Part shown: positions 2,281 through 55,564 of the stretch, one piece after another
How the letters are laid out: each line of letters starts with the position of its first letter
Numbering within the stretch: the stretch's first letter is position 1
Source of the DNA: Vermamoeba vermiformis
Taxonomy: Eukaryota
NCBI GenBank assembly: GCA_045837725.1
Contig: JBEWZL010000219.1
Location: 186,001-250,000 of the forward strand
Direction of reading: 5' to 3'
DNA length: 64,000 nt
The notes under the pieces: model-generated
The model's input: only the letters and a program-made list of their open reading frames with translations
What the model was told of the DNA's origin: nothing
The model's database searches: none
Program-made: the position numbers and the translations under genes

Positions 2281-5200
2281 ATGTCTCTTAACGTTACACC
2301 AACGGTGACAAGAAAGACAAAGACGGATGAGACAAGCCCAGACGATTTTGTTTCTGGAGCGCGCCGCAAGTCAGAACGTCGAGTCAAAATTCCAAATAAC
2401 TTTGGTGAATATGATGTAACTATTTCTGCCTTGAAAAAGAAGCAGCTGGATGATTCCGACGAGAAAATGGGATCTGGATCTGACGAGGACAGCGAAGGCT
2501 CGGTGTCAGCGCGCACAAACAAAAGCTCTAAAAATGCGAATAACGATGCGGATAGTGAGCCACGTCCCTCCAAGGGCAAGGATAGAAGCGCCAAAAGCAA
2601 GAAGACCAAGGCTGCTCAGGACAGTGACGAACCTTCGCGCAAGTCCAATAAGAAAGCGAAGGCAGCAAGCAAGTCTGACGACGAAGAAGACGCTAAGGTA
2701 ATATATATACTACGTTGACTGCAGCGACAGCTTACAAAACTTCGAATATCGATTTCGGACTTAATTTTCTATACGCTTGCAATCATGAGACTTAATTGCT
2801 CAAAACATACCGTTTATACTCTTCACAGCATTGTACAGGTTACAGTACAAGAATAATTTTTTTTCCTATTTTTATTAATTTTAATTCGTAAACCGTCCAA
2901 ACATTTGACAGCAGCCCAAAATTCCTCTGACTAATTTTAAAATTATATACAAATAATATACAACCCAACTAGTAGAATACGTGCTCAAATGTTAATTAGA
3001 TCCTTTTTATCAAATTTATTTTCGACCAATCAAAACGCTTCTTGCGTTAACCAGGATTTCGCTGGCAACCCAAGGTTGGGTTGCTTCTAGTAATAATTGC
3101 ATTGTCAAACGGTCATGAGCTCGGTTTGGCTTCTTAGTCTTCTTTTATTTCGATCTCGATCTTACCGAAATTTTTAGGAAGAAGATGATGGCAGTGGAAA
3201 CCACGATCAATGTGACGCTTGCGGCGACGGTGGCTCTCTTCTTTGCTGCGACGCTTGTCCAAGGTTGGTAGACGATGAATTCTTGATTTCTCTTATTCAC
3301 TCTTCGTTAGAGCTTTTCATATCGACTGCTGCCCACTCCCTTTAGACCGCAATGCGCTTCCTGATAAATGGTTCTGCCATCAGTGCATTTTAGAGATCCA
3401 GAAGAAGCCTAACGATCCAAACATGCCATTTTTAAAAGGAGAGGCAAGTCGCTGGCTAGTGTTTTCAAGCTTAGTTAACCACCCAATAGATTTTGGCTTA
3501 CGCAGCACTGTGCCTTTCAGCGAAGAGATTAGGAGACTCTGAGAATAAGCGAGAGAAGCAAGGCAAGACAGGCCCCTTCAGCGCAATCTATCTCGGCCTA
3601 GGTGTCACTAATCCTCGTTCTTATTCCATTCCCAACGCTGTAAAGAAAATTGGTACGTATAGCAATGCACCACTGAATTGCAGCTGATTTGACATGACCC
3701 GTAAGCAGATCGACGAAGTGAAGTTCGTTTTATGCAGTTCAAAGACATTATGAAGAACCCTGAAATGGGCAAACAGCGTTATGCACCAGAGGATAAATAC
3801 GTTGACAGCAGGAGCCGCCAAAAGATTGGTGTAAGTTCAATTTCGCGCGTTGTCTCAACTTTGATTGCTGAAATTTCTGCAGCCTGAGTGCACTGTGTGT
3901 GGATGTGGCCCGGTGACAAACAATGCCTACCGCGCCAAGCCAATCCAAGAACCAGATAGATTTGACGTCTTTGGATTGTTGAAGTGTTCTCTGTGTGATC
4001 GCCATTACCACGCGTGGTGCTTGGACACGTTCTTCTTGGAAGCGCACAGTTGGGGCCTGGACGGTAGTGATGACTTTGATTGGACTTGCCCTCGCCATCG
4101 TATTCCCGACCCGAACGAAGACAGCAAACACTTACCTGCATATCGCCGGCTCGATGAAATGGTTCAACCTACTGCTCCTTTGCCGGATCCATCTGTTGTG
4201 AGCAATTACATCCTCTTGGACTCGTACTTGCCGTACTTCTTGAATTATGAGCCGTACACCATCCCTGTCAAACGCTTGGTAAGCAATAGTAATCAATTTT
4301 ACTACTTGAATTAACACTTTTGCAGCCGAAGGAAGAAAAACCGTTCTATCAGAAACCTTATGTCGTGCAATTGACATCAGATCCAAGCAAAATTGCCGCA
4401 GCACCAATGTATTACGCGGCTGCTCCCGATGCAAATCTTACCGAGAGTCGCAGGCGTGAACGTACACGAAATAGCTATGACGAGAAAAGAAAAGAACTTG
4501 CCTCGCGTGATACATTCAAGAGCGTTGACAAGACTCAACGTAAGTACTTTGTTGTCACTGTGTTAATTCTAACTGAACATAATCATCAGGAGCTAATATT
4601 GGCAAAGATGAAATGCTGAAAGTGATGATGCAAAAGATGAATGTCGACCTTTCACAGTTTGTCATGCCCTTGAGTGATGTGCACTTTGTGGAGGACATGA
4701 CTGATCAATTCGAGGAAGAGCTCGACGAGATCTTTTCTCAACACCCTCGCCTTAAGCGCGACTATGAATACTTGCAAGGGGTGAATCGCGGCATGAAACA
4801 GCTCGCAGAGTGTCAACGACTGACCAAGTTAATTCCTTCACGCCCTAGACGCGTTCAAGCACAGAAAGACATCAAGAAAATGAAGTTTGCAAAACGCGAG
4901 GAACTGTTTGTAACTCACATGAATCAATTGAAATCTGAAGTCGACGCAATCCTGAGCTACATTACGGTAAACATCTGTTTCAATTTCAAATTTAATGCTA
5001 ACATGTTAACAGCCCAAGGAACTGCTCGCGTACTTCCCTCTCGGAGACTCCAAGTCCTTAGGCGAGCCCACTGATTCAACTACCTCCACACGTGCCTCTG
5101 CTCAAATGGCTAATTTGCGCAAGAGTGGCAACGGTGAGAATGGCAACGGCGACGGAGAGAACGGTGAAAACAACGACAGCAACATGGGCAGCAGCAACAA

Positions 5201-6605
5201 CAACGCTGGGTCAGGTGGCGATGATGATAGGAACAACAAGCGTAAAAACGACCCCGATGACATGGACGACGGTGGAGATGATGACGACGAAGACAACGAA
5301 GAAGAGGAAGCAGAAGTCGCAAACGCAGATGATGACGACTGGGAGTTCAGTGCCTCGGGTGACAAGGACAAGAAACGCAAGTCAACTCGCAGCACTCGAC
5401 CATTGCGCAAGAGCTCGAACACTGTCATGAGCGATGCTACACAGCCTGAGAGTGTGATGAGCATTGAAAAGACGGAGCCTGTGACTGAACAGCAAAGCGA
5501 AGAACGCTTGCGCCAAATGCAGTCGTTGTTGTGGGCCAACATGTCCCCTGTCTTCCTGCAGTTCTTGGCCTGGCAGCGATTGGTTGACATTGGTCAGCAC
5601 TTGGAACGATCACAACAAATCGCGAACTTGGACTCGAACGACGAGCGCGTGCAAAAGATCCTAAACGAAGCTCACAAGCAAGACGACATGATTGCCACTC
5701 ACATGGCTTGGCTTGACACGTGGAAGAGCAACTTGGACTTGCAGCAACAAGTCATCAATCCGCGACCTACCAAACGTGCTCGTCCAAAGAACGATAATGA
5801 CGACGATGAACCACCAAACAAGCGACGCAAACAAGAGAAGTCCGAGAGTCCCAACACTGGCAGCTTGTCTGGCAACATCACCGCCACTATGGCGAGCATG
5901 TATAATCTGCCTGCCCCGTCAATTTCACCGCCGGTCACCCCCACTCCCACTCCCACTTCTGGCCTGACTTCTCTCAAGAAAGGGGTTGGAATTGCTCCCA
6001 AAGCCATTGCTCCTGCAGGCTTCGGTTCTACAGGCATTGCTTCTACAGGCCCTGTTGCATTGCTCCCCAAGCCTGCCCCTCCTAAAACTATTTCTGCCCC
6101 CACCCGTGGTCCAGCAAAGGCTCCTTTCACGCGCTCTGCCAATCTGCCACGTGACACCAGACCACCCAACGGTCAAACCAAACACACGTGGAAAGTACCG
6201 CTCCCTGATCAACCTATTCGCGGTGCCATTGCTTCGTTGACAGGGGTCAGTGAATTCGATAGCCAGCCCTTCCAATTCAACATGTTCGCGCACAAGATTT
6301 GCATTGGTCGTGGCATGCCCATACTCGAATTTGACGTCGCCAAGTACACTGACTGCAAGACCATCAGTCACAAGCACGCGCAAATTGAGTTCAGCCCTGA
6401 CAAGAAGTGCTTCATCTTCAACAACTTGGGACGAAACGGCACGCGCATCAACGAGGAGCAGATTGGTGGCAAGCTAGGCGTGAACATTCCTCTCGTGTTG
6501 TATCCCGGTGATGTGATTGAGATGGGTCGATTCCGCATGACTTTCAACGTGTACAAGCCAAACGGCTTCGAGACTATTTACGATCACGGTCCTCCACCTG
6601 AATAA
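2281..6605 (+). CDS. PHD-PHD-FHA chromatin protein, PHF12/Rco1-like (multi-exon; start codon uncertain, 2224 region or 2281)
   Basis: Spliced PHD1 [25 protein letters not shown]...WFCHQC (3178-3400). Linker GPFSAIYLGLGVTNPRSYSIP. PHD2 CTVCGC...LLKCSLCDRHYHAWCL...WTCPRH. C-terminal FHA ICIGRG...ISHKHAQI...GRNGTRIN. This domain order matches PHF12. Confidence 0.8.
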
Positions 6606-14900: not shown

Positions 14901-17601
14901 ATGGCAGACAAATCACACAAAAAGCATAAAGATAAAAGTAAGTATAGCATTATTAGTATTAATATTAAATATCTTGCATAATTCTCGTGTAATCAAGCAA
15001 AGGGAGAATTCCGATCACCGTTTCAGTCCTGTTATTTATAATTGCGCATATTTCAATATATCCGCGCTACTTTAATTATATATAAAAATAGTTGATTAAT
15101 AATTGCAAAGATATTTGGGTCAATAATCGACACCAAATTTATTTTCCGATCAATAGGTACCCGCCTTTTCGTTTAGAATATTATTCAATTACTATTACAA
15201 TGTATTTAAGCATCTTTAGCTCTAGTATGGAATTACGCTTTATCTTATTCCCTTTCTTATCGCTGCTTCGTGAAAACTTTTAGGTGATCAAAGACGATCT
15301 CCGAAAACTATTGATTCTTGAACGAATAACTCGATCATGAATGATCATCGCATAGATCCACCTTACCTCTAATATCTTTCTTAAATAATTCTAACCGCAG
15401 ACAAATATTATAAAATAGGATCGGATGTTATCCTTTTTACGTTGATCCGAGCAAAATCTTTTCTCATACGATTAAATGATCTAAATCATAGGACAAAACA
15501 CGGGTAGATCATGTTTGTTAATATTTCTAAATATAGGTTCGAAAGACAAATCCAACCGAGACTCCAGAACCATCAAGACCGACTCACCTCGCCACTCGGT
15601 GCACGAAAACAACCACAAAGAGCACACGAGAGACCACTCTAACCATAAAGAGCCCAAAGACAATGCTTTACGACGCACCGACAGTGATCTAAATTCCGGC
15701 GTGCCAGATCTAGTTAGCCCACGAGGTATTTCTCAATTATTATACTCATTTATACTACCCGATATATACGCTATTGTTAGCTTGGGCTTGCGGTTTCATG
15801 AAATCATAGATATTCAACTAAAAGTGACACGTGACGCCTGACATTTGCCAAATAAGTCGCTTGAGCTGATTTTTGATTCACAGAATCTAAGCGAACGGAG
15901 AGAGAACGCAAGCACAAAGAGCACCACAAGGACCGCGAGCACCATCACAAGGACAAGGATCGCGAGCACCGAGACAAAGAGCACAAAAAAGTTTCGAGTC
16001 CGCGACGTCATGCCACGGAGTCGGTTACAGTGCAACAACGCGAACAAGAGCACGTGATCAATGTGACGAATAAGGACGACGATTACAGCGAGGTCACGAT
16101 CAGCAACTACTATACACCCAATGGCAACAACACCGCCCCAGCGCTGGATGGCTTCATCGTGAAGAGCACTGACTTGTCCAGTCCGCGTCACGACTCTGCC
16201 ATTGCGATTCCAAAGCGCGTTGAGTCTGACAGCGATGTTTACTCGAGTCAAGTCAACTCACCGCTTGTCTCTTCGGGCACCAAGGTAACGCTAACAGAGT
16301 CGATTGCGTACAATGCTCACGGGCTGTTTAGTCCTTACAGAGTTCAGCAAGTCCACCAGGGATGCATTCACTGGCCTCCTCAGGGGTGTCTGAAAGTGAA
16401 CCAGGCCGCGCGCTGCCAGAGATTGAATGGAAAGAACTCGTGCTGGACTTGGAGAACGTGCTGGGAACCGGTGCATTTGTGAGTACCGCCATGCATTGTG
16501 AATCGTGTGCTCATACTGCAATAATAGGGAATTGTGTATAAAGCCAAGTGGCGAGGAGCAACAGTCGCAGTGAAGCAGTTGAAGGGCATTGATGCGGAGA
16601 ACTTGGAACACTTCAAACGCGAAGCTCGTATCATGCAGTAAGTGTCAAAGTGTCAAAATATTCATCAATCGATCTCACCACTCATCAACAGCAAAATTGG
16701 CAATCACCCCAACATTGTGCGCCTGTGTGGTATCTGTACCGAGCCCGGCTTATATGCCATTGTCACCCCTTGTTACAAACACGGTAAGTTGAAATAAGCG
16801 TGTCAGTCAGCGAGCTAATTGTCCAATCAGGTTCTGTGCACGATCAAATTGTGAAGAACAAAGTCAAGTTGGAGTGGCATCAAATCGTTAAAATTGCACG
16901 TGACGCGGCAGCAGGTACGGCACTAAATACATCCTCGTGAGCGCTTGATGACTTACACTTGACAGGTGTCTATCACTTGCACTGCGAGCGATTCATACAT
17001 CGTGACATTGCAGCGCGCAATGTGTTGTTAGACGATCAGTGGAATGCCATGGTGTCAGACTTCTCGCTCTCACGCATTCTGTCACCGGGCATGGCTGGAC
17101 ACAAAACTGTTTCTGCGTTTGGACCCATCAAATGGATGCCACCAGAGGCTCTTCTTCATCAGCATTACTCGTCCAAATCTGACGCGTATTCATTCGGCAT
17201 ATTCTTGTGGGAATTGGTGCGTGATCAAATTGATTCTATCAGTGGCACTTGCATTCATACTAACTTGATATCATCTTCAGTACTATCGCGATGATCCATA
17301 CAATGGCATGAAGGCCATCGAGGTCATACCACGCGTGTTGAAGGGAGAGCGGCCACAGATCACTGAGAACTGTGACCCGTTGTTCAAACAGCTGATGGAG
17401 CAGTGTTGGCTCGAAGATCCAGAGAAGCGTCCGTCCTTCCGCCACATTGTAGACTTACTCGACAACTACTACGAGGAGCTGTTGCACCACATGACGCGCA
17501 ATGCCTCGTCGAGTCCGCAAGGCACCGCTAGTCCCATTACAAGTCCTTCAAACAGCTCTGGCAACAACAGCAATGGCAGTGTGAGCAGTCTCAACTCGTG
17601 A
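14901..17601 (+). CDS. TKL/tyrosine-kinase-like protein kinase with a His/Lys/Asp-rich N-terminus
   Basis: Spliced GTGAFGIVYKAKWRG, VAVKQL, HPNIVRLCG, HRDIAARNVLL, DFSLSR, GPIKWMPPE, SDAYSFG, CWLEDPEKRPSF. Confidence 0.93.
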
Positions 17602-17779: not shown

Positions 17780-18340
17780 ATGTCCATTTATTTCAAGCAA
17801 GACAAAGTCGAAACATCGCTCAAGGGTTACGAGGTTCGTTTTGTTGCACTCGAACAGATCTGTTTGGATTATTTATTAATTTTAATTATATCTGTACAGC
17901 GTGATGACTCTGAAGACGTTTGGGACACTGATCCGTAAGCGTAATCGCTACCAAATTAATTCCGAAATTGACTGATAATTCTTCTCGCAGTAATTACGTC
18001 AACAATGTGTCTGAAAAGGAGCAAAGGTATTGATAACTATAAAATAATAGTTGATTGCCTCAAAGCAATGTGGGATCCGCCTAAAATTTCATAATCTCGC
18101 CTATTTTACCTATTCTAATCATTTATTAGAATGGGTTCAGCATTGATTAAGCCCACTGAAGATATGGGCGCTATTAACTTGGCTGAACTGCGCAAGGAGA
18201 CGCATCAGGCTGTTGACGAGTCTAGGTAACTAACTGCAGTCTTCTTGTTTATGTAACTAGCACTACTAACGAATATTCATATTATACATAGACAACAGAA
18301 CCTGCATCCTTCGCAAAAGCATACTTACGGCTCAAAATAA
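17780..18340 (+). CDS. 89-aa protein consisting only of a cortactin/HS1 N-terminal acidic (NTA)-like module
   Basis: Five GT-AG exons (17780-17833, 17900-17934, 17991-18026, 18130-18225, 18292-18340; 270 nt) give MSIYFKQDKVETSLKGYERDDSEDVWDTDPNYVNNVSEKEQRMGSALIKPTEDMGAINLAELRKETHQAVDESRQQNLHPSQKHTYGSK*. This matches cortactin [21 protein letters not shown]...INIHKLR...SHGYGGK. Confidence 0.85.
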
Positions 18341-18507
18341 CTAAGTTTACCCACTCACCTGATCCGTATTTTGTAGCAATAAATCCAATGGAGTTAATAA
18401 TCGCATATAATTGCCCTTGTTACAAAAAATAATACGAATGTTGGTCAACTCAATCAGTTTCTAGTAGCGTGTCAATTTCAAAGGCAATTTCCACCTTCCA
18501 GCGACAG

Positions 18508-19944
18508 ATGAACAGAACACTCGTTTCAAGTCTGTTTCGCCGTGCCTTTGTAACCAAGAAATTTACTTCTCTAAAGCCACTCACTCGCTGTTATTCAAGT
18601 AAGTTTGAATGCTCGATTGGATCGGTCGCACAACATTGAAAAAATATTACAAAAAATACCAATAAATATTCTGAAATTTATTGAAGTCATATTGATGTTG
18701 AGAAGATCAGGAAGGTTTTTGTAATAAAAATATTTTCCTTTCAGAGGCCCGTTCAATGGACTACAAAACTCGACCGAGCAATATCATAGCCCTGGGCCAG
18801 CTGTGCTCCACCTCAAATATCGATGAAAATTACAATCAATGCGAGTGGCTGGCAGAACGTGCCAAACAGAGCAATGCGAAGATGTTGTGTTTGCCGGGTA
18901 CGTACCAGACCGTGCACTGCATGACTGAGCACGTGACTTACACTTTCTTAATATAGAATGCTTCGCGTACATGGCTGAACAAGACGGTGATTCGTACAAG
19001 AACTCTGAGTACCTGCACGACGGCAAGAACTTGGCACGATACAAAGGTATGGAGGATCTAGTGGCGATCACAGTATAGATATTCATGAATGGATTAGATC
19101 TCGCGAGGAGATTAGGACTGTGGATGTCATTGGGAGGATTCCACGAGCGATCAGACGTTGAGGGCAAAGTGTTCAACTCGCATCTGATCCTGAACGACCG
19201 CGGCGAGATCGTGACTGTGTACCGCAAGATTCACATGTTCAAAGTGAGCATTGCTAACGGACCCAACTTGGACGAGAACAAGTCCACGCAAGCTGGTGAT
19301 GTAAGTCGCAATTCAATATGATTGGTGGCTTTATGCTCATTGTATTCCACTTAGCAACTAGTGCTCGTCGACACACCACTCGGCAAGATTGGACTGACGA
19401 CGTGTTACGATCTCAGGTCAGTAGTAGCAGTGCTCGTCATTGACGCGCGATTGATTGTGCGTGCAGATTTCCAGAGCTGTATTTAGCACTGTCCAAGTCA
19501 GGAGCACAAATCATATTGGTGCCATCAGGTAGACTACAACAATGTACTATTGTATGCGCTCGCTTATTCACATCTTATCCAGCCTTCACCTTGATGACGG
19601 GCAAAGCACATTGGGAGCCGTTGTTGCGTGCTCGAGCCATTGAAAATCAAGTGTACATGGTGGCTGCAGCACAAGTCGGCACGCACAATCCCAAGCGAGT
19701 GTCGTTCGGTCACAGTCTCGTCGTAGATCCGTGGTATGTCGGCAATAACTTTACTAGTGCAGTATTAACATGAGGGCTATACAGGGGCACTGTCGTGGGC
19801 AATGCATCGGACAAGTACCCCGAGCTCGTGTTGGCAGACTTGGACTTGAGTTACATCGAACAAGTGCGACAGAGCATTCCAGTCAGCACGCATCGCAAGC
19901 CTCACGTGTACGGTGAGATCTTGACCGCGGATAAGACCAAATAA
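18508..19944 (+). CDS. NIT1: Nitrilase-family deaminated glutathione amidase (NIT1-like)
   Basis: Triad motifs [54 protein letters not shown]; mitochondrial-type presequence in exon 1. Confidence 0.92.
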
Positions 19945-30479: not shown

Positions 30480-32509
30480 TTAAACAGGAATTAACAACCA
30501 CTTCTGAATGTAGTGCTCAATTTGTTTTCTCGCGTGCTCCAATGCAGCAGGCTTGGTACAGCCACCAGGACAGCCACCTAACAGACGATTCATTAGCTAT
30601 GCAGTACCACACTAGCACTGTTCAGTGTGACGTACGATAGTCAGCGCAGTGACAGCAGTTGTCGCCACATTGAATCACAAGTGCGGGTTCAGAGGCACTC
30701 AATGACTCGCGCACACCGGCCCACTAGTGCACAGAGTCGCCGTTAGTATAGGCATGCAATATATGGTGCCGAGCTGAATCTAACTTACCTGCCACGGGTC
30801 TTGCGAGCCATTAGCAAAGTAGACATTGGTCGCGGAAATGTTCGCGGCACCGTAGTAGGCATTAGTAGCTTCAGTGTCGGGCCACAAGTCCTGCAAGTAG
30901 GTCACATTAACATCGTCCTAGTGACACGTGTCATATAGTCGCGTACCATGCCAAACACATTCTTGCAGTGAGTGCGGTGGTAAGTCATGTTCACGAACTT
31001 GGATCTGATGCTGCCAGTCGCAGGGGCGTTCTGGAAATACGCCAATTCGCTGCACGTCTGGTACCACCACTGACGCGAGCCATCGCCCGGCTGAATTTTT
31101 TGTTGCATTTGTGTGCTGTATTGCGAGGCTGTACCGAAGATTGCCATCCAGAAATTGGTCACGTAATTGGCATAGGCCTCAACCAGGGAGTGGTTCAGGG
31201 CCTTGGCGGTCTCCATGGTCGTGCACAAGTTCGTTTGATAGCTAAATAAGGCAAGGATAAGAGATTTCTTTGTCGGCTGAAAAGTCACGTGCCCGAAGTA
31301 AATTTTTTCACGGATATATTGTCAAATAATAAAATTGATAAAATTATTTTTGGTCCGTACCCGTACTGCACGCTCTCAGCCATCGAATCAGCCAAGAAAT
31401 AAAAGAAATCTCCGTCGTCCTCCAACACCGTGGCTTGGAAGAGTTGTTTGATCTTTTTCTTGCTGTCACCGCCAGCCAAGACCATCTTCTCCGCTGCAGC
31501 TGTAGTCTCGCGCAAGACATTGGCGCACTTGGCACCGGCCGAGGCTGCAACTTGCTGGTCAAACGCGGTGAAGTCGAGGATCGCATTCACGACTCCACTG
31601 CTCGACAAACTGCCGCGCGTCAAGTGCGGGAACTTCAATCTGAACCACGCTAAATTTGGAGATGTTATTACCATATTTGGAAATAATTTTTGAACGGGAT
31701 TAGTACCGGACAGAGCACCAGAATAAGAGCAGCCAAAAGTGAACCAAGCGTTGCTTTGTAATCCATTGGCCTCTTTGTATTTAGTGATGAACATGGCAAG
31801 GTCGTATATGGCTTGTTTAGAGCTCAACCATTGCAAGTTTGGAGTGCTCAGATCTGCGGTCGGGATCGAAGCTCCATAATAGCGGTGTTCAACGGCAATA
31901 ATCTTAGCGCCAAATTTCTACACGACATTAGAAAATTAATACTATTTACTAAAATATTGGAGGCCTTACTTCAGCCAATCTAAGAACTTCAGGGCCAGAT
32001 TGCTCGTCAGGAGATCCGGGCAAAGCAGCTGGATCCTCGAATTAATTTCAATACGCAAGATTATTGATATTATTACCTTCTCCCGATATGAACAAAAATA
32101 TAGGGCCAGTAGGCTGATTCCAATAGCTATTGTCCTCGTAATATCGTTGCTTAAAGGTCCTGAAATAAAAATATCAGCATAATAATTAAAAAAACATCCA
32201 ATAATATTTTAATCGCCGCAATATAATGTATAACCAGTGTTGGATGAATTTATAATTGTAAAAGGAATTTTCTGCGACCGCTAGATATTTTTTAAAAGTA
32301 CTAAAGAAAATCTAACGGATATATTTATTAACTATCAAGTCTTACTTTGTATTTTGAGGATTGAAATGATCTAAAGTTTGTTCGAACCAAAGTGCGTTGC
32401 TATTTCTCGCAGATGGGCGTTGCAAGTACTTCGGCCAGGCCTTGCTCACTACAGAGGCACTGAATAGACACAATGCAACTGCAAAGGTCAATATAATAGT
32501 GCGTCGCAT
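30480..32509 (-). CDS. Secreted/lysosomal serine carboxypeptidase, family S28
   Basis: Signal peptide; WFEQTLDHFNP, FFIGE, EHRYYGAS, LSSKQAIYDLA, FGCSYSGAL, RQWWYQTCSELAYFQ, NGSQDPW, HCAD. Confidence 0.94.
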
Positions 32510-32630: not shown

Positions 32631-34367
32631 TCAAAGAGCGAATAAGTAGAGCGTGACCATCATCACTGAAGCCTCAACGACAACAGCACTATTAGATCGT
32701 GTCTGCGGAGTGCCTGCGACAGGAGTGACTTGGGCCACAGGGGCAGCGACAGGGACTTCAGCCAATGGTGCAACAGGAACGGCGTCACACGTGAATCCAT
32801 CGCCCGTGTACCCTTGTTTGCAGGCACACGAGTAGCCAATCATTTCTTCAATGCAGTCAGCGTTCTTATCACACTTGTTAGCAGTAGGTGAGGCGCACTG
32901 GTCATTGGGAATGAGCCAGATGTCTTTGCGACCAGGAACGTCATCGTTGGTATTCGAATATCCTGTCCCAGCCACAATGTAGAGGTCACCGTTCATGATC
33001 TTGCCAGGCATTTGTCCACCGTAGGCCAAGCCAGGCATAGTCGAACCAGGCGTTGCGATAGTCGCTGTAGACACCCAGCTGATCGATACTACTGATGTTG
33101 CCGTACACGAGCCTCCATTGCTTTAGACTCTTGCTGTACTGCCACACTTGATTTGATGGGCCGAATTCTCCCGTGGACGACATGGCACCGGCAGAAAAGA
33201 GCATCAGAGTACCGTCCAGTCTGTCAACCAGCGAGCAACTCTCACAACCACCAGGGTGATTGTCAGCGTTGTAGTCATCAGAGGTCGAAACTGCACTCAT
33301 TGTTTCCGGGGCGAATGGTCCTGGCGGCATGTACTCGATTTCGTACCGACGATTGCCGCGAGTGTCAAAGGTCCACATGACAGCACTGTCAAAATAATCG
33401 AAACTAAGTTGTCCGTAGCCTCCGAACAACCACACTTTGTCGTTTTCATCAATAAAGCAAGCTGAGAGGTATGTGCCACCAAAGTAAGTCTCGTTGCCGA
33501 CCACACCAGATTTTATATCTCCGTAGATGTACGTCCATAATTTAGATGTGGTATTAAAATGCCAAACGGAATTTTGGTATCCGTTCCTGTTGTAACCAGC
33601 CAGACTCCAAATATCATTCTGCGAGTCAACAACTAGACATTGGCCCTCCTGGTATCCAGGCCACACGTCCTCGCCTGGCTGACCTGGATTGGCACCAATG
33701 CTGGGGACGTCAGTAGCGGGATCAAGTCCGTGCACTCTGACGAACATCATGGAGGTCGTGTTGAACATCCACAACTCACCGGTGTACTCGTAAGATGTGA
33801 ACCAAATGTTGTCGTTGTTGTCTAGAGCCAGGTGAGTGTATAAAATGTAGCCAGGATGATTGTTCACTGATTCCACCCCGAGCTCACCTGGTTCACGAGA
33901 GTCGGTTGTGGCATAACTGGGATCTCCCCAAACGTATCTGTAAAGATCTGTCTTTGGGTCGTAATTCCATACGGTGTAAAGACGGACTGCTGCACCGACA
34001 CTGTAGTCATAGCGAGAACCAAACATGATCCACAAAATGCCTTTCGAATCCACTGCCATTCCCGGACCAAGCGACCGTGAACCAGCACCAACAGTAATAT
34101 TAGCCCAAACTCCCTTCTCAGCAACGAAACTTTCGGCAATATTGGTGAAATCATTGCCACCAGGGATTGCTGAAAACTTAAATTAGCTACGTATGCCATA
34201 AAAAACCGCTAAAATTCGTTTGAATTATTGTACGTTTAATAAGGTGTTGAGATTGACTTACACACATCAACGTTGGTCGGTGAAAGCCAAATTGGCTCAA
34301 CAATCGCGGATACTGTTACAAAAATAGCGAAGAGGACGCTCAAGTACTTGCCAAGACCGAACTTCAT
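32631..34367 (-). CDS. Secreted kelch/beta-propeller protein with an EGF domain and a probable GPI/TM tail (apparent frameshift near 33053)
   Basis: Signal peptide MKFGLGKYLSVLFAIF; repeats DSQNDIWSLAGY and DENDKVWLFGGYG; EGF CDKNADCIEEMIGYSCACKQGYTGDGFTC; PVA-rich stalk and hydrophobic end. Confidence 0.8.
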
Positions 34368-54801: not shown

Positions 54802-55564
54802 ATGTCATCTACACAAAAACTCGCAGGCAAAGTCGCAGTCATCACAGGAGGCTCGACAGGCATTGGTCTCGCCACGGCACAATTGTTCGTGCAGCACGGC
54901 GCTCATGTATTCATCACTGGACGACGCCAAGCTGAACTCGATGCAGCCGTGCAACTGATTGGTCGCGAACATGTCACTGCTGTTCAAGGGCGATGTGAGC
55001 AACTTGGCGGATCTGGATCACTTGTACGACGTGGTCAGAAGCGAGAAGGGCCACATTGACATCGTGTTTGCCAATGCCGGTATCGCCGAACAACTGCCCA
55101 TCGGTGCCATCACTGAAGAACACTTCGACAAGCTGTTCAACATCAACGTCAAAGGTCTCGTGTTCACAGTTCAAAAGTCACTGCCCTTGTTGTCAGAACA
55201 CGCGTCAATCATTCTCAACGCGTCAGTCGTGTCCATCAAAGGCTTCCCTGCAAATAGTATCTACAGTGCCACAAAGGCAGCAGTCAGAGCCTTGGCGCGA
55301 AGTTGGGTGCTCGATCTGAAAGGCAAAAACATCCGCGTCAATGTGGTGAGTCCTGGACCCGTTGAAACACCCATTTTCGAGCGAGGAGGCATGAACGAGG
55401 CACAAGTCGCTGGCGTCAAAGAGTTTATTAAATCTCAAGTGCCGATGGGCAGATTTGGTCGATCTGAAGAACTCGCCAATGCAGTCTTGTTCTTGGCCTC
55501 GAGTGACAGTTCGTTTATGACCGGTGCCGAACTATTCGTCGATGGCGGATTTGGACAAGTCTAA
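54802..55564 (+). CDS. Classical short-chain dehydrogenase/reductase, intronless, with an apparent +1 frameshift at 54988-54990
   Basis: TGGSTGIG, then after removing one [36 protein letters not shown]. Confidence 0.9.

Follow-up and report, generated by a model that had tools for sequence, protein, structure and literature searches.

A five-exon gene of Vermamoeba vermiformis encodes a protein of 89 amino acids that, judged by its sequence, is a homologue of the N-terminal acidic region (NtA) of cortactin alone, and by architecture is not a cortactin. The gene lies at positions 17780-18340 of the forward strand of the window, i.e. the whole stretch of 64,000 nucleotides that was analysed. 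Its product is a known module in an undescribed natural stand-alone form, of which sequences are already public and some have been named by similarity. The earlier note on this DNA had called the gene hidden, but it is no singular oddity: a large family of its kind is found in public databases as 'hypothetical protein'. By analogy with cortactin, the protein is probably a repeat-less stabiliser or co-activator of the active Arp2/3 complex.

The gene runs from the ATG at 17780 to a TAA ending at 18340, and splicing leaves 89 codons plus the stop. Its exons measure 54, 35, 36, 96 and 49 nt (270 nt in sum) and its introns 66, 56, 103 and 66 nt, all four with GT..AG borders; GC content is 0.29-0.38 in the introns, compared with 0.44 in the exons. 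The features are as follows.

17780..17833, forward strand: exon 1, ATG plus 17 codons, MSIY.. leader
17834..17899, forward strand: intron 1, 66 nt, GT..AG
17900..17934, forward strand: exon 2, acidic run and W26; ends after two bases of the P30 codon
17935..17990, forward strand: intron 2, 56 nt, GT..AG
17991..18026, forward strand: exon 3, ..NYVNNVSEKEQ, then two bases of the R42 codon
18027..18129, forward strand: intron 3, 103 nt, GT..AG
18130..18225, forward strand: exon 4, linker plus the greater part of the predicted amphipathic helix; codon of L59 at 18179
18226..18291, forward strand: intron 4, 66 nt, GT..AG
18292..18340, forward strand: exon 5, helix end, tail ..HPSQKHTYGSK, TAA
18341..18387, forward strand: 3' UTR, AATAAA at 18378-18383, 38 nt past the stop

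The spliced product includes ..EDVWDTDPNYVNNVSEKEQRMG.., ..INLAELR.. and, just before the stop, ..HTYGSK. The MSIY.. leader of exon 1 is common to relatives of the MSV[YF] type, the codon of W26 occupies 17921-17923 in exon 2, and exon 3 encodes the best-conserved block of the family. The five small GT-AG exons splicing to 89 aa that the earlier note had described, with AATAAA just downstream, are found exactly so in the sequence. It is also true that no single reading frame covers the whole gene, the longest stop-to-stop piece being 56 aa.

The gene is expressed, on thin read support. Three raw RNA-seq runs, X21-X23, yielded 9, 12 and 14 reads at the locus that were 90-99% alike; they stem from a relative rather than from the window's strain. 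A further run, X1, contributed four contigs, 95-99+% alike; its status as RNA is a guess, though the contigs are without introns. Intron 1 is skipped in four reads of X21 and two of X23, and intron 2 in four, two and six reads of X21, X22 and X23, respectively, as well as in an X1 contig that differs by six letters where the exon ends. For intron 3, the corresponding numbers are two, one and two reads, plus two X1 contigs. Intron 4 is skipped in one X1 contig, whose shorter side is 71 letters long, and the loose ends of three X22 reads past 18225 fit the start of exon 5 in 27 of 30 letters by manual count. An X1 contig leads from exon 4 through exon 5 and the stop to 18387, just beyond AATAAA. 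The four junctions and the 3' end, for which the earlier note had wanted RNA, are therefore all represented in spliced records, with the end at 18387. A transcript continuing into repeat or SH3 exons was not seen, the X1 contig ending after TAA and the 3' UTR. The 10 base differences listed in the reads are all synonymous in the proposed frame. Reads of X21-X23 end by 18232 and none falls on the downstream Nit gene, which at 90-95% likeness does not mean absence of expression.

A scan of metagenome contigs yielded a single locus, L001, which is syntenic with the window: the 3' end of a kinase gene, the micro-gene and a Nit gene follow each other in the same order. L001 has four introns at matching positions, with GT..AG kept and lengths of 46, 52, 60 and 59 nt. 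Its exons are identical to those of the window at 229 of 270 nt (85%) without any indel (48 of 54 nt in exon 1, likewise without indels), as against 124 identical positions of 215 and 78 gap columns in the introns, and its stop is at the same codon. The codon differences comprise 36 synonymous and 4 non-synonymous changes, which amounts to strong purifying selection on the frame. A homologue search with the 56-aa stop-to-stop frame led in addition to a public JGI gene model (hereafter P0004), an 89-aa 'hypothetical protein' identical to the window product at 82 of 89 residues (92%). The gene model is thus as secure as sequence data allow.

Intron 1 is in frame and stop-free in the window, and also in two relatives; prokaryote-style ORF calls (49 aa; P0001-P0003) span it. 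A retained-intron isoform using this open intron was considered and dropped: since intron 1 of L001 is 46 nt long, conservation does not extend to the open frame, which probably arose by chance.

Homology to cortactin was supported by searches in both directions. With phmmer, P0004 matched cortactin chains in the PDB (8p94_I, E 1.5e-9; 8tah_H, E 5.2e-9), and cortactin was the only significant match there, the third row having an E value of 1.6. The alignment with 8p94_I is colinear, query residues 19-89 lying on chain residues 15-87. For the reverse search, the profile was derived from the N-terminal parts of 14 full-length cortactins bearing repeats and SH3. The spliced window product scored 66.4 bits over 76 of 84 profile positions (E 1.9e-13 at Z = 1.8e9), versus 11.8 bits for the best of 2000 shuffles; the best other ORF of the window, possibly an exon piece of the same gene, reached 17.3 bits. 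The cortactin acidic module proposed in the earlier note thus extends to homology over the whole NtA, and the profile match to the cortactin N-terminus that it had called for is significant. Atlas neighbours included HS1, a chytrid 'hypothetical' and cortactin-like clusters, at scores of 0.89-0.90 that we treat as leads only.

According to the alignment of P0004 with the PDB chain, residue n of the window protein corresponds to cortactin n-4 up to residue 79. W26 therefore matches cortactin W22, and the residues around it pair as D24 with D20, D27 with E23, D29 with D25, P30 with P26, Y32 with F28 and V33 with V29; further on, L59-H79 corresponds to I55-E75. The last four residues, Y86-G87-S88-K89, align to Y84-G85-G86-K87, the opening residues of repeat 1, which spans cortactin residues 80-116. 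The protein stops there, at the start of the first repeat, as had been claimed from its sequence alone. Of the parts that follow in cortactin, none was found. In tblastn searches of the 64-kb window, 17 full-length cortactins matched exons 2-3 only, all other HSPs having E values of at least 0.2. Pfam detected PF02218, the 37-residue HS1/cortactin repeat, neither in P0004 nor in the exon translations; SH3 was absent from P0004 by Pfam and from the window by tblastn. An exon-by-exon Pfam scan returned no family in any of the three exon-bearing frames, and Pfam has no model of NtA. With neither repeats nor SH3 in the transcript contig or the 64-kb window, and the stop at the repeat 1 opening, the protein stands alone, which is why we assign it to NtA rather than to cortactin.

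The protein is laid out as an acidic stretch with the invariant W, a block ..V-N-x-V-S-E-K-x-Q-R-x-G, a helix of ~20 residues and a terminal Y-G-x-K. Residues kept include twelve from invariant or near-invariant columns of the stand-alone family (D24, W26, D29, P30, V33, N34, E38, Q41, R42, G44, L62 and Y86), along with R63 and G87. AlphaFold2, run on P0004 with a 50-row alignment, produced a helix at residues 59-78 in a block with pLDDT up to 89, and low-confidence coil in the remainder; the mean pLDDT of the chain is 67. The amphipathic NtA helix of cortactin is described as I55-T76 (PMC11102864), and the predicted helix of P0004 aligns to cortactin I55-E75, where the published helix sits. 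The model therefore predicts that the window protein has the amphipathic NtA helix.

At three conserved positions, the window protein and P0004 carry residues seen there in no other of the 50 rows. Position 25 (cortactin D21) is V, while it is D or E in 40 of 42 stand-alone rows and in 7 of 7 cortactin rows. Position 43, the W of ..QRWG (cortactin W39), is M, against W in 35 of 43, and position 66, a V of the helix (cortactin V62), is T, against V in 36 of 43. Of the five acidic contact residues named in PMC10613254, three are acidic in the window protein. The D21-W22-E23 motif is called essential in PMC11102864, so that the lineage of the window protein, in which V replaces D21, may have a reduced affinity. 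L001 shares the V, M and T changes, its four amino-acid differences falling elsewhere; the variant form is itself conserved and is not a product of decay.

To delineate the family, we searched 1.84 billion representatives with P0004 (phmmer), which gave 68 proteins at E <= 0.001, comprising full-length cortactins with repeats and SH3 and many proteins of ~90-100 residues. A profile of 18 short members then matched 424 of 1669 candidates of 35-189 residues at E <= 0.001; the matches named here come from the best 120 of the 424. Among those listed are proteins of the dictyostelids Polysphondylium violaceum (CYY_000937, 94 aa) and Heterostelium album (PPL_02355, 97 aa), and at least 18 repeat-less chytrid records, including Geranomyces and Powellomyces; the members from Batrachochytrium dendrobatidis and B. 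salamandrivorans are 100 aa each. Two chytrid members carry the automatic name 'Hematopoietic lineage cell-specific protein' and several JGI rows the automatic name 'cortactin'. Many other rows among the matches listed are animal cortactin or HS1 fragments with PF02218. Cluster look-ups provided transcriptome ORFs of further amoebozoans (Ceratiomyxa, Flamella, Cavostelium and Paramoeba) and of cryptists (Roombia and Palpitomonas), marked 'type:complete' wherever the printed label is visible. The wider protist search proposed in the earlier note thus finds relatives in dictyostelids, other Amoebozoa and cryptists, and they occur in chytrids as well.

The stand-alone members are complete ORFs of ~80-130 residues that stop soon after the conserved Y-G, a description that the window protein fits, and a Pfam scan of eight of them returned no family. 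Dictyostelid, other amoebozoan and chytrid micro-proteins share its length class and architecture; in contrast, the three unusual substitutions belong to the window's subgroup. Tails also differ, reading H-[SP]-S-Q-K-H-x-Y-G in the window's subgroup, ..K-x-L-Y-G-G-E-R in other Amoebozoa and ..S-Y-G-[VA]-G-K in chytrids. A different architecture was found in Thecamonas trahens 'cortactin isoform F' (XP_013756644.1, 184 aa), which consists of the head and an SH3 domain without a Pfam-detectable repeat. It resembles the window protein in its MSVY-type N-terminus, acidic motif and helix region and has a G-Y-G-G motif, but the added C-terminal SH3 makes its architecture intermediate.

Many members (P0138, P0149, P0043, P0109, P0151 and P0089) carry an extra C-terminal motif after the Y-G, which is absent from the window protein. 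In cryptists and P0043, for example, it takes the form G-Y-G-G-x-[YF]-G-[HV]-E..D-Q-T-T; for Paramoeba and a number of chytrids, the form is Y-Q-T-P-G-x-x-Q-[ST]-T. The motif resembles the first half of the HS1 repeat, without a PF02218 match. Two database entries have unexpected taxonomic labels. The chytrid-type protein P0175 (cluster of P0060) shares a 90% cluster with MEY3440875.1, labelled as a Pseudomonadota MAG, and probably a contig of eukaryotic origin has ended up in a bacterial MAG during binning. An MMETSP entry of the green alga Chloroparvula pairs with a Paramoeba protein (P0156 and P0151; 100/99) with a branch length of its own of 0; contamination of the culture by an amoeba looks more likely than a green-algal gene.

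In a maximum likelihood tree of 51 rows (support given as UFboot/SH-aLRT), the window protein sits in a 20-row clade (98/92) that holds all six named amoebozoan rows, so that it belongs, as had been claimed, to a non-animal lineage, clustering with amoebozoan and not with animal sequences. The chytrid clade (100/99) adjoins the animal cortactin heads (91/70), and Thecamonas is grouped, weakly, with two cryptists (81/16). The tree roughly tracks organismal groups, which argues for vertical descent and for a window of non-animal, probably amoebozoan, provenance. The provenance is read from this one short protein, the Atlas neighbours of the ATG11-like ORF being of mixed eukaryotic taxa without a placement.

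The distribution of architectures fits the 'ancestral free form' suggested in the earlier note: the module is free-standing in Amoebozoa, chytrids and cryptists, combined with SH3 in Thecamonas, and combined with both repeats and SH3 in the cortactin rows only. Cortactin most likely arose from such a micro-protein by gaining repeats and SH3. A fuller scenario, which we put forward tentatively and hold slightly short of even, is that these proteins form an ancient class of free-standing Arp3 ligands that pre-dates the split of Amoebozoa, Obazoa and Cryptista and was the original cortactin N-terminus. They would still serve as repeat-less stabilisers of branch junctions or as co-activators in amoebae and chytrids, and cortactin would be a holozoan elaboration in which SH3 was added first, as in Thecamonas, and the Y-G-G was then amplified into actin-binding repeats.

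By eye, the tail H-P-S-Q-K-H-T-Y-G-S-K (18307-18340) of the window protein resembles the inter-repeat junction of P0008, ..K-H-x-S-Q-K-D-..-G-F-G-G-K, and is nearer to the HS1 inter-repeat junction than to the junction between NtA and repeat 1 of cortactin. The resemblance of the exon 5 tail is not statistically supported, a PF02218 scan giving no match at E up to 0.1; it may be a hint that a tail of this sort gave rise to the repeat unit.

Published work on isolated pieces of cortactin is the basis for the proposed mode of action. Cort1-76 is described as using D20-V29 to bind Arp3 between its subdomains 3 and 4, where W22 occupies a hydrophobic pocket with basic residues around it, and as synergising with NPFs despite lacking F-actin binding (PMC10613254). 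At the branch junction, NtA residues 21-79 are reported to span all four Arp3 subdomains, the helix binding a cleft specific to activated Arp3, and NtA alone gave partial branch protection in a debranching assay (PMC11102864). By analogy, the tryptophan of the window protein and its flanking acids would enter the basic pocket between Arp3 subdomains 3 and 4, the linker would cross Arp3, and the helix would dock next to the hinge helix of Arp3, in a hydrophobic cleft. This cleft is accessible only when Arp3 is activated, so that the protein would favour Arp2/3 in its active, short-pitch state or keep it there. It would raise NPF-driven nucleation and slow debranching, leaving the complex untethered to F-actin because repeats and SH3 are absent. 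Cortactin K87, with which the final residue of the window protein aligns, is directed towards the first daughter actin subunit, and the near-invariant terminal Y-G suggests that contact at the Arp3-daughter interface matters.

The same binding site could support the opposite effect, the protein acting as a competitive decoy or inhibitor that limits NPF-driven delivery of actin to Arp3 by filling the Arp3 pocket in which the acidic motifs of WASP-family A domains and of Arpin bind. The cortactin motif is described as sharing its Arp3 site with NPF A domains and Arpin, and NPF-mediated activation as falling when cortactin is at high concentration (PMC10613254); the sites of NtA and of the N-WASP CA region are also reported to overlap on Arp3 (PMC11102864). 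Moreover, without F-actin-binding repeats, the protein cannot recruit the complex to filaments. We nevertheless regard inhibition as unlikely, as isolated Cort1-76 together with NPFs increased polymerisation (PMC10613254), isolated NtA protected branches (PMC11102864) and the helix that reads the active state of Arp3 is also predicted in P0004. Less likely still is that this NtA homologue has lost its action on Arp2/3 and that the substitutions D-to-V, W-to-M and V-to-T mark a new partner or role. These changes affect three conserved positions and are confined to the window protein and P0004 among the 50 rows; however, the tryptophan and most invariant positions are kept, and the 36 synonymous versus 4 non-synonymous differences of L001 extend across the whole protein, acidic motif included, which fits a retained binding surface. 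Finally, a non-functional locus, whether its sites resemble splice sites by chance or it is what decay has left of a larger cortactin gene, is very improbable: the tiny exons, the lack of a Pfam match and the low read depth that would speak for it are outweighed by spliced records at all four junctions, by the intron positions, stop codon and synonymous bias kept in L001, by a profile score of 66 bits versus 11.8 for shuffles and by complete orthologues in many named genomes and transcriptomes. Stabilisation or co-activation of active Arp2/3 therefore remains our preferred reading.

Compared with known Arp2/3 ligands, the window protein is closest to the NtA of cortactin (CTTN) and HS1 (HCLS1) (PDB 8TAH and 8P94). 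It is colinear with cortactin over residues 15-87 and shares the tryptophan surrounded by acids, the block T-D-P-x-[FY]-V-N-x-V-S-E-K-x-Q-R-x-G, a predicted helix where cortactin has I55-T76 and the Y-G-x-K with which repeat 1 begins. Unlike cortactin and HS1, it has no 37-residue repeats, proline-rich region or SH3; its N-terminus is MSIY.. where that of cortactin is MWK.., and it has V for D21, M for W39 and T for V62. The A motifs of WASP-family NPFs and Arpin similarly place a tryptophan amid acids in the same Arp3 pocket, but they are C-terminal, following a central or WH2 region in NPFs and a folded core in Arpin, and described as binding with opposite polarity (PMC10613254). The window motif is N-terminal and colinear with the inverted A domain of cortactin, and no sequence homology to WASP-family NPFs or Arpin, WH2, central region or Pfam domain was seen in the protein.

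Cortactin has been described as confined to metazoans (PMC554100), as restricted 'to holozoans' (PMC3748353) and as found 'since Holozoa' (PMC4824007). In the main texts of mostly open-access papers, we found no description of free-standing NtA proteins outside Holozoa, and an earlier mention may exist; the nearest trace is a row 'cortactin, 97' in a Blastocladiella EST table (PMC1550239). Judged by these proteins, the Arp2/3-binding head of cortactin is much older than its stated holozoan or metazoan range, and in lineages whose crawling and phagocytosis depend on Arp2/3 networks, nature has it as a separate protein. These proteins offer a natural experiment on a debated question, namely the effect of the cortactin N-terminus on Arp2/3 without an F-actin tether, and dictyostelids and chytrids, among other tractable organisms, make it open to experiment. 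They also add a candidate Arp2/3 regulator missing from inventories of the amoebozoan and chytrid actin machinery, and suggest a stepwise origin for cortactin.

In the window, the micro-gene stands alone in a gap of ~900 nt between two genes of the same strand. Upstream is a TKL/tyrosine-kinase-like protein kinase at 16941-17601 (+; PF07714, E 1.9e-27; TGA at 17601), with a Ser/Asn-rich tail; an X1 contig, separate from the micro-gene, covers its 3' end to 17676. Downstream, a multi-exon carbon-nitrogen hydrolase of the Nit type (PF00795) extends over ~18508-19944 (+), with its own ATG near 18508 and a first exon that reads like a basic, hydroxyl-rich mitochondrial presequence. Other genes of the window, which have no bearing on the micro-gene, encode an ATG11/ATG17-like protein (1-1707), an FHA-domain protein (5010-6605), an S28 serine carboxypeptidase (31285-31917), a Kelch-repeat protein (32986-34182) and a short-chain dehydrogenase (54959-55564).
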